A stretch of 64,000 bases of DNA from a phage, in sequence record PZ445446.1, one strand, 5' to 3'. Shown here one piece after another: positions 25,121-38,790 of this stretch. A program made the translations under genes and the position numbers. Under the pieces are notes generated by a model. The model worked only from the letters and a program-made list of their open reading frames with translations, searched no databases and was not told the origin of the DNA. Positions within the stretch are counted from its first letter, which is position 1, and every line of letters starts with the position of its first letter.

Positions 25121-25540
25121 ATGAACATTAAATCTAATAATCCGGCATATAGCTTTGATAACGCTTTTTGTCACGGTCCGGCGGCGAAAGGATTCGAAAT
25201 CGATGGTAAACTAATTATTGTCAATGTTGACGGGGAAGAGGTTGCAGTATATCCGGTGGCAGACGTAAAAAGCCGTTTACAATGCCGCATGGATGTTACC
25301 GCCTATCAGCTTGATCCGGTCCGCATAGTTGCCCTGGTCCTGGAAGAAGAAATTAAAGCCATGCACCATAGCAACAGATTTATTGGTGACGCGCAGGATA
25401 ATATGAAAGTATGCCGCCATAAAGTTAATGAAGTGCTTAAAGAGTACGGCTATAAAGATCTTATGATCAAACGTGAGGAAAAATTCCGCTACCGTAACGA
25501 CCTGGCAAATCGGATTTTTGAAATATACGAATCATTATAA
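25121..25540 (+). CDS. hypothetical protein
   Basis: ORF track 139 aa; last plus-strand gene before convergence zone. Confidence 0.55.
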   Translation: MNIKSNNPAYSFDNAFCHGPAAKGFEIDGKLIIVNVDGEEVAVYPVADVKSRLQCRMDVTAYQLDPVRIVALVLEEEIKAMHHSNRFIGDAQDNMKVCRHKVNEVLKEYGYKDLMIKREEKFRYRNDLANRIFEIYESL

Positions 25541-25560
25541 TTTTTTAACTGAATTATCAA

Positions 25561-25584
25561 GGGGCTTAGGCCCCTTTCTTTTTG
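25561..25584 (+). terminator. intrinsic terminator
   Basis: GGGGCTTAGGCCCC hairpin followed by TTTCTTTTTG. Confidence 0.6.
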
Positions 25585-26189
25585 TCTGCTCTTCTCCTAC
25601 CATAAACGGCCCTACCTGGCAAGTGGAATAATTGACTAGCCATCAATCCCACATACTGTACAAATATACATGGAAAATAACTATTGCATAATTTTTCATT
25701 GTGTGGTAGCAAGTCCATTTTTACCCGTTTTCTCTCCCAAAAGTGCACGTAATGCCGCTATTGCACAAATTTTAACCTGATGCACATCTCCAATATCTTG
25801 TCAACAACTAAAAATCTTTATAAGTCATACACTTACACAGCATCGAAAGCGTGTTCTACGCGAAAAATCGAGTATAACTATAGCCGCCAGATCTCAGAAT
25901 TCACGTACGCACGCCATTCTATAGCCTGCAAAGTATTTATTCCAACCACAGAATAACGGAATAGTCAATACCTGCATAAAATAATTATTCGTGTAAACTG
26001 CATAACATAAATCAGCTCAGGTGTCAACATTTTTCGTAAACAGTCCGAAATTATCACGATGAGCTATCATAAACAGAGAAATATTTAGTCGTCTAATGTT
26101 TACTGTACATTACTATACTGACTGGAATCATTAGATGACTAAGAGAAAGATAAGAAATAATTAATAATGTAATTATTTTACCTGTAACA

Positions 26190-26500
26190 ATAAGGCAACT
26201 ATGCAAACGAATGGCATGGCGCGACGGAGTCGCGACATAATATAAAAGCAGTAACCATCACCCCCGTGATAGTTTGTCTGCAAACTATTAATCAGATCAT
26301 AGTTGCCTTGTATTTAGTTAATCATGACATAACAAGCAAGGCAACTATAGATCTTCTAATAGTTGCCCTGCTTTTATATTATGTCATAGGAACGCCCGAA
26401 GGGGTGACCTAGTCACCTGGTATAGCCAGCGAAAGATTATTAACTTGTCGATTGTTATCTTGTTAATTGTTTTCATGCAAACGAATGGCATGGCTTATCA
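26190..26500. repeat. cluster of inverted and direct repeats in non-coding DNA
   Basis: AAGGCAACTAT at 26192 and 26338 with inverted ATAGTTGCC(T/C)T at 26299 and 26359; 20-bp direct repeat ATGCAAACGAATGGCATGGC at 26201 and 26475. Confidence 0.6.
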
Positions 26501-28060
26501 TCTATGCGTGAACAGTGAGGCATGCAATAGTAACAATTGTTATTGTATCCAGTGTGTTGAGTATGCCCAGTGTGTCACTATTATGTCATATTATGTCACA
26601 GTATGTCAGACAAGTTTTCCTCCTCTTTGTCAAGTGCTGCATGAAAAATTTACAAGCTTGTATGGTAGCATTTTTGCGGCCCTGTTTACATTCAGTGTTG
26701 TATGTATAATCCTTGTTGTGTGGGCGTTTAGACGTCTGGACGGTCAGAAGTTTGCAGGTCAATATCTAATCTATTGGCTGCTAACTATATCCCCCACAAA
26801 TAATAAGAAATATAATTGTTATGTGCGTAAACAGTAACCCATGTTATCAATCCCTGTATGTATCGCCAGTGGTGCGCATAATGGGTATTATGTTAAATTG
26901 CCCGTAATGATAACAGTTCTCACAATGATAGGTATTCTCATTCATCCACACAAAATAGGTTGCAAATGTTGTGCCACTGTGTGAACGGCCTGGCCTATTA
27001 ATTTCTCTCACTGCCTCGATATTTGAGAATTGTTATAAGAATGAGAAGTATTCCCATTCCGTCCGCCTGGCAGCACTCCAGTAGCTACCGGCTCCTGACA
27101 GGGCAGCACTCCTGTAGGTCAGGTCAAAATCGTGGTAGAATTGGGCCTGTTCAGATATTTCTGACTGACTCTTCAGATCTGTGTGGGAAAAGCCAACCTC
27201 TCCGGAGGGGCAGGGGAGGTCAATTAAAAAATTTACGTGGTGTATGAAGCGCTCTTCAGGTAAGGCATGTATTATGGGATGAAACCCTCTTCAGGCAATG
27301 ATATTTGTGGGTGTGATATTTGCTGGAAAGCCAGATATGACGGGACTCCCGGCGGGGATGGGGTAGTACAGACAGGGAAAATATGGGGATGTAGTTGGGT
27401 AAATTGATCAGACAGGTAGAGTATGGAATATGTTACAAGTATGTTAAATAGGGAGGATGAATATCTGCAGGATTTGTGTGTAAAATCAAAGACTTAAGTG
27501 GTGTTGTGGTATTTTCTATAAATAATTCAAGTTTAATAGGTAATATTTGTCTCTATCCACTTTGTGTGGTAAACAGATTCAGATGAAATTGGTTTACAAG
27601 TGTATACATAATATACAAATTAAAGATACAAGAAACCCCCCTCCCCCTTCGGCTACCATTCACCTTTTCCTCTGACTGGTACTTAAACACTTATTCAGAC
27701 TCTTCAGGTTATCACCCATATATCATATGGCAGTGACTGGTGTCCTCCGGCCCCTCTTTCGTCACCCGTCCGCTTCGCCATGCTAATGCCATAGCCAATG
27801 GTTCGGTTGTTCACTCTGTTCACTCAGGTGTATCTCCATACCCCTTCAAACCGAAGAGAACAGAAAACCCGAATTACTCGGTAAAAGAAAAGAGAAGAAC
27901 TTAATTTTATCAGGATAGGCAAGAATGTCAAGGCATGACTGCTCACTAAACAAGCAAACAGTCATGTGTGGAAGGTAAGTGATTGTGGTGGTGGGAAATT
28001 TAGTTGAAAGATGTGTTATAGGTGCGCTTCCAGCACTTTGGCCGGGCAGCTAATTGTGTG

Positions 28061-32058: not shown

Positions 32059-32454
32059 TTACTGAAACAGTGCGGATAAATTACCTTCTGGTGGGAACTT
32101 ATCTGCCAAAAACGGTGTTAGCACAGTAGCCTTCTGAAGATCTGGGGTCCACTCGTTGTTCAGAACATCCCAGTAGTACGCAATGTTGCTGTGTGGGTGC
32201 CGCATTACGAACTTTTTCCCTTCGTAGTCATCTGAAACCTCTACAGAAGAAATAACAACAGAATCTTCAAGGGTTTCTTCATAGAAAGATCCACCTTCAA
32301 ATTTCCAACGAGATGCAAGAGCCCCTGCCTTGAACGCTGCAGATAACGGACTGTCGGCAAGAACATACATTTCTTGCACTCTGTCGCTGCGATCTTTGCT
32401 TCTTACGTTGTATACAGTATCTGAGCTATACTCAACACGGTATAGGCTTACCAT
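32059..32454 (-). CDS. hypothetical protein (paralog of 34261..34659)
   Basis: ORF track 131 aa; shared HP.S...YW.....WTP segment with paralog. Confidence 0.55.
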   Translation of the reverse strand: MVSLYRVEYSSDTVYNVRSKDRSDRVQEMYVLADSPLSAAFKAGALASRWKFEGGSFYEETLEDSVVISSVEVSDDYEGKKFVMRHPHSNIAYYWDVLNNEWTPDLQKATVLTPFLADKFPPEGNLSALFQ

Positions 32455-33415: not shown

Positions 33416-33552
33416 TTAGAGGCCTCCTCAATTATTTGATATTAATAGCCGTAACCTAACACATTAACTACAACTGCGATTGCAAACATAATTTCAAAGC
33501 ATGCAATCTCTACATTTGGGACTAATTTCTTGATCACACCCATTGTAGCACC

Positions 33553-33870
33553 TCATTCTCTAAAGTCAATCTTTACTTTGCCTTTCCCCTTACCTTTCTT
33601 TCCACCGCATTTAGCCAGTTGACGTGCTGCAACATCTACCATACGGTCAGTTGCCTCGTAAGCATCACTGCCTTTAGCTTTGGCAATAACTTCTTTTCCA
33701 GAATTGTCAAAAATGAACGCCATAACTTCCTGGTGATCATTTTCAACTTTTACACTCACACGTGCATAGTTGGCAGAGGGATGCAAACGCTCCAGCTTAG
33801 ACATTTTGTGGGAAATGAAAGACACCATACCTTCAGTGATTTCTACGTTGCCAGTGATTTCAATTTGCAT
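33553..33870 (-). CDS. hpf: ribosome hibernation promoting factor / RaiA-like (HPF)
   Basis: MQIEITGNVEITEGM..KLER...V.VKVE...ARQLAK closely parallels E. coli HPF (MQLNITGNNVEITEAL...KLEQ...VLKVEK...ARQLTKHKDK); 105 aa. Confidence 0.8.
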   Translation of the reverse strand: MQIEITGNVEITEGMVSFISHKMSKLERLHPSANYARVSVKVENDHQEVMAFIFDNSGKEVIAKAKGSDAYEATDRMVDVAARQLAKCGGKKGKGKGKVKIDFRE

Positions 33871-33952
33871 AACGTGTTCCTTTTAAAGAAGAGGGAACCA
33901 AACCCTCTTTGAAAACAATGATACTAAATCTGAAGCGTTGTGTCAACAGTTT

Positions 33953-34260: not shown

Positions 34261-34659
34261 TCAGTTTAGCTTTTCTTCAACAACCCCATAGCTCGGGACA
34301 GAGTCAAGAGCTTTCTGGTTTAAAAGTGGTGTAGCAGAATCTGCAAACGGTGTCCAAGTTTTTGTTCTGGCGTTCCAGTAATGCTTCACTCTGGAATCTG
34401 GATGCACTATAACAAAAACTTTTTCACTTGTCAACACATTAATTTCTTCCACACCCCTGCTGATAATTTCTCCGTCATATCCCCCGGTCTGGTATCCTTC
34501 GTACCAGGTTCTTGCATAGGCATAGCCAGCCTGCCAGCATGCAGCCTCCTCCGAGGTGGAGACTACGTAGAAGTCTTTCTCAAATTCTGGGATACGCCCT
34601 TGCTTTACGCTCCAAGCTCCGCGAATTTTCATTGTAACTTTGAATAGTTTATTTTTCAC
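34261..34659 (-). CDS. hypothetical protein (paralog of 32059..32454)
   Basis: ORF track 132 aa; paralog alignment. Confidence 0.55.
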   Translation of the reverse strand: MKNKLFKVTMKIRGAWSVKQGRIPEFEKDFYVVSTSEEAACWQAGYAYARTWYEGYQTGGYDGEIISRGVEEINVLTSEKVFVIVHPDSRVKHYWNARTKTWTPFADSATPLLNQKALDSVPSYGVVEEKLN

Positions 34660-34671
34660 AACGGTTACCCA

Positions 34672-34926
34672 TCACAGTTCTACAATATCTGCATCTGACC
34701 CTGCCCCAAAGGCATAATAGGACTCTTCCCCGAAATAATATTCCGGTGCACCAGCAGCGATCAGGTCTGATCCCAAAATGAATACCACGTTGTGGCCTAC
34801 ATAGCTGTGATTTTGCCGCACAGGATCATCCCACGGCAACCCTTCGAAGTATACCGCAGGGACGACCTTTCCTTTCAGGAAGGATTGCCCCAAGTAGACG
34901 TTAGAATCAAGAATTTTAACCTTCAT
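34672..34926 (-). CDS. small protein, MKVKxLD paralog family
   Basis: ORF track 84 aa; MKVKILD...GKVV...DLIAAGA. Confidence 0.55.
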   Translation of the reverse strand: MKVKILDSNVYLGQSFLKGKVVPAVYFEGLPWDDPVRQNHSYVGHNVVFILGSDLIAAGAPEYYFGEESYYAFGAGSDADIVEL

Positions 34927-35143
34927 GATCGTCCTCCACTATCTCTACATCCTCACCTAGGGCAAAGTTGTAGGTCCACTGACTGTCAAAGCATTCCTGA
35001 GATGCACCAGCGGCAATAAGATCTGCCCCTTTTATTTTTAAAAGGTCAGGGTAATCTTCGTTAGGGACAGCAGTAAACACTTTCCCTACTAAAGGCTCCT
35101 GACCAATATAGAAGCTTGAATCTAAAACTTTAACTTTCATCAA
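34916..35143 (-). CDS. small protein, MKVKxLD paralog family
   Basis: ORF track 75 aa; MKVKVLD...GKVF...DLIAAGA. Confidence 0.55.
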   Translation of the reverse strand: MMKVKVLDSSFYIGQEPLVGKVFTAVPNEDYPDLLKIKGADLIAAGASQECFDSQWTYNFALGEDVEIVEDDHEG

Positions 35144-38026: not shown

Positions 38027-38560
38027 CTACAAATGGTCGCTGAGGGTGTCAAGAAAATTATCCCGTTCTTTCTCAGAGTTTTCATGTGTGTAGCTGAAAA
38101 ACATATCGAGAATAACCTTATTGATATATTCCAGCTCCTCTGTGTTCAGATGCTTAGCAGGATCTACAATGACATCCCAAATATCATACAGACCACACTC
38201 ATGATACCCATAACGCCACTCAATTGTCAAGCTGAGCGGCAAATCTTTACCTTCACAAACAACCTTCCATCTACATATGTTGGTATCTGGTCGTACCTGT
38301 GCACGGTAAACCTGCACAAAATCCAATTTGAATTTGAGGTACTCGTCATACAATTTAAGCACAAAGCTCTCGATTTGTGGAGACACTTTTGCAGCAAACT
38401 GTGCGTATTTGTACTTGCACTGGATGATCTTTCTACGTTTTGCAGTTAAATTTTTTGCCGCCAGTTGTTCTTCAGTGTATCTCCACCTACGATCAACAAA
38501 CGCAACAGGGTCTTTGTCCCCATAGAGGTCTTCCCAGTTAATCAGAAGCATACCTGTCAC
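38027..38560 (-). CDS. hypothetical protein
   Basis: ORF track 177 aa. Confidence 0.55.
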   Translation of the reverse strand: MTGMLLINWEDLYGDKDPVAFVDRRWRYTEEQLAAKNLTAKRRKIIQCKYKYAQFAAKVSPQIESFVLKLYDEYLKFKLDFVQVYRAQVRPDTNICRWKVVCEGKDLPLSLTIEWRYGYHECGLYDIWDVIVDPAKHLNTEELEYINKVILDMFFSYTHENSEKERDNFLDTLSDHL

Positions 38561-38790
38561 TCCTCCACAACTTCAAGGCCTTTACCGCCTCGCTCTGGCA
38601 GATTACTTAAAGATAGGTAATACATATAATCAGGAGAGATCCTGCCAGACTCTGCACCTGCAGCTAGTAAATCCTTCCCTTTAACCAGGACAACATTCTC
38701 GTTTGCAGATAGCCGTTTTGCTTCCACAATTTTACCAACACAGTCAACCAAGGAAGGGTACCCTAAATCTGTAAGAAATTTAACTTTCAT
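38557..38790 (-). CDS. small protein, MKVKxLD paralog family
   Basis: ORF track 77 aa; MKVKFLTD...GKIV...DLLAAGA. Confidence 0.55.
   Translation of the reverse strand: MKVKFLTDLGYPSLVDCVGKIVEAKRLSANENVVLVKGKDLLAAGAESGRISPDYMYYLSLSNLPERGGKGLEVVEE

Follow-up and report, generated by a model that had tools for sequence, protein, structure and literature searches.

The 64,000-nucleotide stretch of phage DNA analysed here (sequence record PZ445446.1; hereafter the window) encodes on its minus strand, at 33553..33870, a diverged homolog of the short form of the ribosome hibernation factor HPF (Ribosomal_S30AE family). The gene is intact, with an ATG start and 105 codons ahead of the stop. It carries its own promoter and is an old acquisition that selection has kept. 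The reading favoured here, held at about even odds (probability near 0.5), is that the product is a salt-labile binder of the decoding channel of vacant host ribosomes, which would leave them as silent, protected 70S particles with no 100S.

Family membership and predicted fold

The 105-residue product (MQIEITGNVEITEGMVSFISHKMSKLERLHPSANYARVSVKVENDHQEVMAFIFDNSGKEVIAKAKGSDAYEATDRMVDVAARQLAKCGGKKGKGKGKVKIDFRE) begins MQIEITGNVEITEG and has AARQLAK in its interior. It matches the Pfam family PF02482 (Ribosomal_S30AE) over residues 3-88 with an E-value of 1.8e-12 and 48.3 bits, against a gathering score of 23.7, and it also exceeds the cut-off of the NCBIfam model for the HPF/YfiA family (TIGR00741; 45.9 bits vs 40.9). 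The top PDB matches found with phmmer are E. coli HPF structures (2rql, 4v8h and 6h4n; E ~5e-12). Residues 1-89 align on residues 1-89 of E. coli HPF with only two one-residue gaps, one residue being deleted in the β1-α1 loop and one inserted before β4. E. coli short HPF (YhbH) likewise consists of one S30AE domain, some 90 residues long, in the order β-α-β-β-β-α, and the two collinear proteins have in common the MQ-ITGN-VEIT start, D69, Y71, D75, the ARQL motif, R83, K87 and K91.

A first-pass annotation had described a 105-residue HPF/RaiA homolog at 33553-33870, nearly collinear with E. coli HPF at the N-terminus and in the ARQL helix. The ORF call on the minus strand and the phmmer alignment bear out these particulars, and sequence, Pfam and NCBIfam profiles, PDB match and predicted fold all agree on the homology. 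Membership in the HPF/RaiA superfamily, on its short-HPF branch, is secure. The dimerisation domain of long HPFs (about 60 residues) is absent, as the phage protein ends 16 residues after helix α2 in a segment predicted to be disordered.

Within the superfamily, the protein lies nearer HPF than RaiA, with 40-41% identity to E. coli HPF against 22% to RaiA, and with 55.8 bits for the HPF equivalog model (NF007780) against 17.6 bits for the RaiA equivalog model (NF007654). NF007780 is the best subfamily model, but its cut-off of 125 bits is not reached, nor is the cut-off of 158 bits of NF007654. A score above an equivalog cut-off means that the same function is expected; the status of the phage protein as a functional equivalent of HPF is not secure. 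RefSeq phage records use "RaiA" as a generic label for the family, which is no evidence of RaiA orthology.

An AlphaFold2 model was built from a 54-sequence alignment of family members taken from the profile search (mean pLDDT 83.8, pTM 0.74). AlphaFold2 and Foldseek together delimit a folded HPF domain of residues 1-89 (33604..33870, minus strand), composed of β1 (2-7), α1 (13-29), β2 (33-43), β3 (46-55), β4 (60-67) and α2 (70-89). The profile search and the superposition on HPF, both suggested in the first-pass annotation, thus gave a significant family match and the expected β-α-β-β-β-α order. The model superposes on V. cholerae HPF (4hei) with an rmsd of 1.0 Å and a TM score of 0.93, and on E. 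coli HPF of the 100S ribosome (6h4n_x) with an rmsd of 1.2 Å at 41% identity. All 37 Foldseek matches in the PDB at E <= 0.001 are hibernation factors of the HPF/RaiA/pY family. The T7 protein Gp1.2 appears as a weak match at rank 38 (TM 0.42-0.50), and the SPO1 protein Acb4 is not among the matches listed in either the PDB sequence search or the Foldseek search.

The C-terminal tail

Beyond the folded domain, residues 90-105 (GKKGKGKGKVKIDFRE; 33556..33603, minus strand) form a lineage-specific tail rich in Lys and Gly. It is predicted to be disordered, pLDDT falling below 50 for residues 91-105. The C-terminus of the phage protein, CGGKKGKGKGKVKIDFRE, extends 10 residues past the end of E. 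coli HPF; together with C88 and G89, the tail stands in place of the 8-residue HKDKLKQH that closes the bacterial protein. Residues 88-105 carry a net charge of +5, against +2 for the E. coli HPF end, and the whole protein has a pI of 9.0, against 6.5.

The tail is basic in all variants (rV5 type, Murica, P0003 and P0004), while its sequence and length vary. The 99-residue form of Murica ends in GKGKAK, and the tail of the sister lineage (P0004, discussed below) is KYSKSKGIDKRTAKWDY. In both Murica and APECc02, the tail has been shortened within a (GGN-AAR)n repeat (codons 33556-33603), which gives the 99-residue protein in Murica. A further length variant lies at codon 8 (33847-33849 region), where V18, A6-1 and Murica-type phages have GNNVEIT, as in E. 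coli HPF, in place of GNVEIT.

E. coli RaiA (YfiA, or protein Y) has the same fold and family and also a C-terminal extension beyond the domain; the end of its tail is acidic (EEVEEE), whereas the phage tail is strongly basic. On the ribosome, the C-terminus of E. coli HPF follows the E-site mRNA path (bioRxiv 10.1101/382572), and the longer tail of YfiA points to the RMF site (bioRxiv 10.1101/2025.10.07.680626). By analogy, the longer polybasic tail of the phage protein could plausibly extend along the mRNA exit path.

Divergence at ribosome-contact residues

The phage protein was aligned, as two phage lineages, with 10 bacterial short HPFs, a column being considered strongly conserved where at least 8 of the 10 bacteria agree. 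Mean identity is 34% between the phage protein and the bacterial short HPFs, against 46% among the bacterial proteins themselves. Both phage lineages keep 19 of the 35 conserved columns, including M1, G7, T12, K22, L26, E43, G58, A63, D69, Y71, A73, D75, D79, R83 and K87; 14 columns are changed in both and 2 are mixed. In about half of the changed columns, one hydrophobic residue conservatively replaces another. The non-conservative changes are E/D51 to M/S, M70 to A, I74 to T, K80 to V/T, L81 to A, H88 to C/Y and K89 to G/S. K80 is invariant in 10 of 10 bacterial short HPFs and in RaiA; it is V in the phage protein and T in the sister lineage.

Contacts that HPF and YfiA make with the ribosome were taken from two cryo-EM papers (bioRxiv 10.1101/382572 and 10.1101/2025.10.07.680626). 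A basic track on α2, formed by K80, R83, K87 and K91, is strictly conserved between HPF and YfiA and contacts 16S rRNA (bioRxiv 10.1101/2025.10.07.680626). According to the two papers, K26, Q29 and Y30 lie near A790 and m3U1498, with Y30 stacking on A790; T53 and H62 contact m2G966; H55 and E60 contact the C-terminal tail of uS9; R33 and K93 contact E-site tRNA; and H95 stacks on G693 and mimics E-site mRNA. From the α2 track, the phage protein keeps R83, K87 and K91, with V in place of K80. It also keeps K25 (equivalent to E. coli K26) and E60. Changed positions are Y30 (to L), R33 (to S), T53 (to F) and H62 (to I), and the C-terminal contact region with K93 and H95 is replaced by the different C-terminus. 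H55 corresponds to F54 of the phage protein, which is within natural variation since some bacteria also have F, and some of the other changed contact positions vary among bacteria as well. With contact residues both retained and lost, the sequence leaves binding at the HPF site neither assured nor excluded.

Promoter, leader and adjoining ORF

A sigma-70-type promoter, TTGACA-17 nt-TATCAT, lies 47 nt upstream of the ATG (33918..33946, minus strand) and matches the consensus at 11 of 12 positions. The rV5 record carries the same element as "Sigma70-type promoter; P144". Across 8 Vequintavirus relatives, the -35 hexamer does not vary and the -10 reads TATCAT or TATTAT, and TTGACA is also found upstream of the HPF gene in the sister lineage (contig L002). 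This consensus host-type promoter makes it likely that the phage HPF is expressed early in infection. In the rV5 genome paper, the gene falls in the transcription unit of genes 82-163, in a block of 88 mainly small ORFs, and 33 sigma-70-type promoters are described (PMC3606486).

Between the promoter and the ribosome-binding site (AAGGA, 33878-33882, minus strand, read from the sequence ahead of the ATG), the 5′ leader contains a 7-bp hairpin, AAGAGGG / CCCTCTT, with a 7-nt loop (33889..33909, minus strand). Its stability does not significantly exceed that of shuffled sequence (z -0.73); relatives have a hairpin of differing sequence at the same place in the leader.

A hydrophobic ORF of 33 residues (MGVIKKLVPNVEIACFEIMFAIAVVVNVLGYGY; 33442..33543, minus strand) starts 9 nt downstream of the HPF gene. 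It has a Shine-Dalgarno sequence, GAGGTG, that overlaps the stop codon of HPF, so co-transcription with the HPF gene is probable. A promoter-like site across the start codon of this ORF (33569..33542) was judged a chance match or irrelevant, given the strong Shine-Dalgarno sequence. The ORF is conserved in Vequintavirus, with annotations in rV5, V18, DrSchubert, A6-1 and Murica. It is missing from L002 of the sister lineage and is therefore not an obligate partner of the HPF homolog.

The small-ORF array

Chromosomal hpf of gammaproteobacteria lies in the rpoN operon. The phage gene instead sits under its own sigma-70 promoter in an array of small acidic ORFs, a setting named in the first-pass annotation and borne out by the neighbours. 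All seven proteins downstream of the 33-residue ORF and three of the four upstream have an acidic pI of 4.0-4.7, the HPF homolog being the basic exception. Some of the small acidic proteins, all on the minus strand, are paralogous: one set comprises 32059-32454 and 34261-34632, and a second comprises 34672-34926, 34916-35140 and 38557-38790. The paralog matches in the array (31% identity, E 2e-9; 42%, E 5e-15; 31%, E 9e-7) indicate local duplication.

An ORF-poor stretch of about 2.5 kb (25,550-28,050) separates plus-strand genes ending near 25,540 from the minus-strand array. Its GC content is as low as 33.5% (25.8-26.2 kb), and the GC skew switches sign. A cluster of short repeats at 25,979-26,500 includes an 18-nt inverted repeat without mismatches (26234-26251 / 26368-26385) and a 20-nt direct repeat whose copies are identical (26201 / 26475). 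This stretch matches the "non-coding" region 104013-106618 of rV5 (PMC3606486) and may serve as an origin or in regulation. Searches of the whole window turned up neither an Rfam family nor a tRNA.

Source phage and earlier work

The window belongs to a Vequintavirus (rV5-like) genome. The 2.5 kb around the gene are 99.9% identical to Escherichia phage WalterGehring (Bas51, Vequintavirus) and 97-99% identical to dozens of rV5-like phages. The WalterGehring counterpart, bas51_0154, is annotated "ribosome hibernation factor", and the rV5 counterpart, ORF144, "sigma 54 modulation factor". The rV5 protein (ABI79209) is the product of the same gene, 99% identical and with the same locus and promoter; residue 104 is R in the window and G in rV5, with no biological difference.

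The existence and identity of the gene are thus already known: its annotation goes back to the rV5 record, and a published analysis appeared in 2019. The novelty implied by the first-pass annotation does not hold. The 105-residue rV5 protein is one of the virus-encoded ribosome-associated proteins listed by Mizuno et al. (2019, Nat Commun, PMC6375957), who placed it among gammaproteobacterial HPFs. Mathieu et al. (2020, PMC6969025) noted that five rV5-like isolates from the gut carry this hpf gene. Literature searches on phage HPF returned no functional follow-up beyond these two papers.

Several database labels around this gene are misleading. It is mislabelled "ATP-dependent protease La type I" in MT884008-11, OR062525 and OR062530. 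In PQ510733 the label "sigma 54 modulation factor" sits on the neighbouring gene. Eighteen records named "Campylobacter phage" (MG0656xx) are rV5-like coliphage sequences.

Distribution and age of the gene

A tblastn search found the protein in 118 records of the phage collection, 117 of them rV5-like (90-100% identity) and one a Salmonella chromosome contig. Of the 120 rV5-like records matching the region, 118 have the gene. A query with E. coli HPF added very few further records among 50,697, the Xanthomonas jumbo phage XaC1 being an example. An exhaustive HMMER scan of 1.84 billion cluster representatives returned only 22 proteins at E <= 1e-3. The single close match is P0004 (103 residues, 64-65% identity), and the next real one is an HPF of Enterobacterales type at 45%. 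A match to P0006, a 1160-residue repeat protein, is spurious, made up of 8 short stretches on residues 35-81. A word-indexed homolog search with the single protein gave 5 near-identical or close proteins, and a related-locus search, also with the single protein, gave only 2 IMG/VR loci.

P0004 is carried on uncultured phage contigs of 15-137 kb, where its flanks are orthologs of the window flanks in the same order, at 37-68% amino-acid identity. This sister lineage of Vequintavirus is represented by Logan/ENA metagenome contigs of 15-125 kb (L002-L005) and has no close counterpart among the 50,697 deposited phage records; its HPF tail is basic but different. Synonymous sites are saturated between the window lineage and the sister lineage. 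Against 8 Vequintavirus orthologs, dN/dS is 0.04-0.20 with dS up to 0.63 (Nei-Gojobori), and the GC content of the gene (41.8%) is that of the surrounding array (42.0%).

Sister-lineage synteny, saturated synonymous sites, low dN/dS and phage-like GC show that the capture is old: the gene predates the split of the two lineages and has been kept by selection. The "relatively recent" transfer suggested in 2019 does not fit these data. A recent capture from the host was likewise rejected, as there is no DNA-level similarity, identity is 41%, GC is phage-like and the gene is syntenic in the sister lineage.

Function

In the favoured reading, the gene derives from a gammaproteobacterial short HPF that was captured long ago and is fixed in Vequintavirus phages. 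Host RNA polymerase would transcribe the gene from its own consensus sigma-70 promoter, so that the protein is probably made early. Its folded domain may occupy the 30S mRNA/tRNA channel of vacant host ribosomes in the manner of HPF, making contacts through the retained R83, K87 and K91 of the α2 basic track and through K25 and E60. The Lys/Gly-rich tail would run beyond the E site along the mRNA path, heading for the platform. Binding is expected to be weak and reversible; a ribosomal protein probably binds more tightly or withstands more salt. The proposed outcome is RaiA-like, as RaiA yields inactive 70S without 100S: idle ribosomes would be parked as silent, protected 70S monomers. The phage may benefit while host mRNA is being cleared or while the host is starved. 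Family, fold and a greater closeness to HPF than to RaiA count in favour of vacant-ribosome binding, as do the three of four basic α2 residues kept alongside K25 and E60, the basic tail of every variant viewed with the paths of the HPF and YfiA tails, and the conserved promoter, purifying selection, wide retention and sister-lineage synteny.

The functional experiment on the rV5 protein was negative (PMC6375957). The protein was expressed from pBAD24 in E. coli NM522, and ribosomes from cells at OD600 ~1 were pelleted through a 500 mM NH4Cl sucrose cushion. By mass spectrometry the phage HPF was detected in the crude extract but in neither ribosome fraction (70S, 100S), and expression left the 100S peak unchanged. 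A wrong growth phase, stripping by salt and a genuine loss of binding were offered as possible reasons, and the authors regard the negative as not conclusive. Cultures in continuous arabinose still reached OD 1, so at that level of expression the phage HPF does not act as a strong general inhibitor of translation. Both this growth and the absence of the protein from salt-washed 70S and 100S count against vacant-ribosome binding, as do the loss of K80 and other conserved or contact positions and the shortfall against NF007780 (55.8 vs 125). The lack of extra 100S, on the other hand, fits a 70S-type outcome. Of the interpretation in the first-pass annotation, the phage HPF homolog stands; direct manipulation of host ribosome activity goes further than the homology, the rV5 protein having been missing from salt-washed ribosomes.

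The protein might also act on ribosomes to the opposite end. Mizuno et al. speculated that a viral HPF competes with host factors and prevents ribosome dimerisation (PMC6375957). A loose occupant of the HPF/RaiA site, and through its tail of the surroundings of the RMF site, that is displaced by initiation would block host RMF, HPF and RaiA from locking ribosomes as 100S or 70S, and translation of phage mRNAs would go on in cells that are starved or arrested by defence. Weak or salt-labile binding and the absence of toxicity suit such a competitor better than an inhibitor, and the loss of K80 and other contacts could lower affinity. The longer basic tail resembles the YfiA tail projecting to the RMF site, the gene has an early-type promoter, and host RMF goes up in at least one defence response, DRT2 (PMC13434031). 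However, the small 100S peak was not lowered by expression (PMC6375957). Competition moreover presupposes ribosome binding, shares the conditional steps of vacant-ribosome parking and needs a finely tuned affinity besides; it is considered unlikely. A fuller version, in which an early-made, low-affinity anti-hibernation factor occludes the mRNA-exit/RMF region with its tail and so keeps ribosomes available to the phage, is given a small chance. Were the anti-hibernation reading true, the losses at K80 and other contacts would be adaptive affinity tuning and not decay, and dormancy-inducing defence systems would also be kept from locking ribosomes into 100S or RaiA-70S.

Alternatively, the HPF fold could have been neofunctionalised, its dsRBD-like fold and basic tail acting on a target such as a different RNA, a protein of the host or a nucleotide signal. 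The negative ribosome association of the rV5 protein (PMC6375957) would then be expected, and the phage clade is an outlier in the family, both in mean identity (34% vs 46%) and in the 14 of 35 conserved columns changed in both lineages. T7 Gp1.2 and SPO1 Acb4, likewise small phage proteins of HPF/dsRBD-like fold, offer precedents: Gp1.2 is a dGTPase inhibitor whose best structural matches are HPF/YfiA (PMC9478638), and Acb4 is an anti-CBASS sponge structurally like V. cholerae HPF. Both have proven targets, dGTPase and cyclic nucleotide signals respectively, and both are without detectable HPF sequence homology. The phage protein, unlike them, retains that homology over the whole domain, including R83, K87, K91, K22 and K25, and many of its changed columns, about half, are the hydrophobic swaps noted above. 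Acb4 is absent from the matches listed and Gp1.2 reaches just TM 0.42-0.50. With true HPF sequence homology retained, an Acb4-like sponge or a Gp1.2-like activity is considered unlikely, and neofunctionalisation in general, the main rival of the favoured reading, is a doubtful, minority prospect. It is far harder to see the gene as a functionless passenger picked up by chance from a host. The expression experiment had no effect and no phenotype is on record, but dN/dS of 0.04-0.20, retention in some 118 records as well as in a sister lineage with saturated synonymous sites, a conserved promoter and ribosome-binding site of its own, and a GC content (41.8%) matching the phage make this very improbable.

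Implications

Other host-derived translation components have been fixed in large phage genomes. Pelagiphage bS21 and phage bL12 are of this kind, and these viral proteins were shown to enter ribosomes, whereas rV5 HPF was not (PMC6375957). HPF-like genes of the jumbo phages Cronobacter GAP32 and Xanthomonas XaC1 are also host-derived and fixed. From their sequences they look like separate acquisitions: the XaC1 protein is 34% identical to E. coli HPF, and GAP32 groups with Firmicutes sequences and not with the E. coli phage HPFs in the published phylogeny (PMC6375957).

The rV5-type gene is conserved, selected and independently promoted, yet its single functional test was negative. As a hibernation-factor homolog fixed in phages, it is a natural entry to how virulent phages handle dormant or starved hosts and their idle ribosomes.
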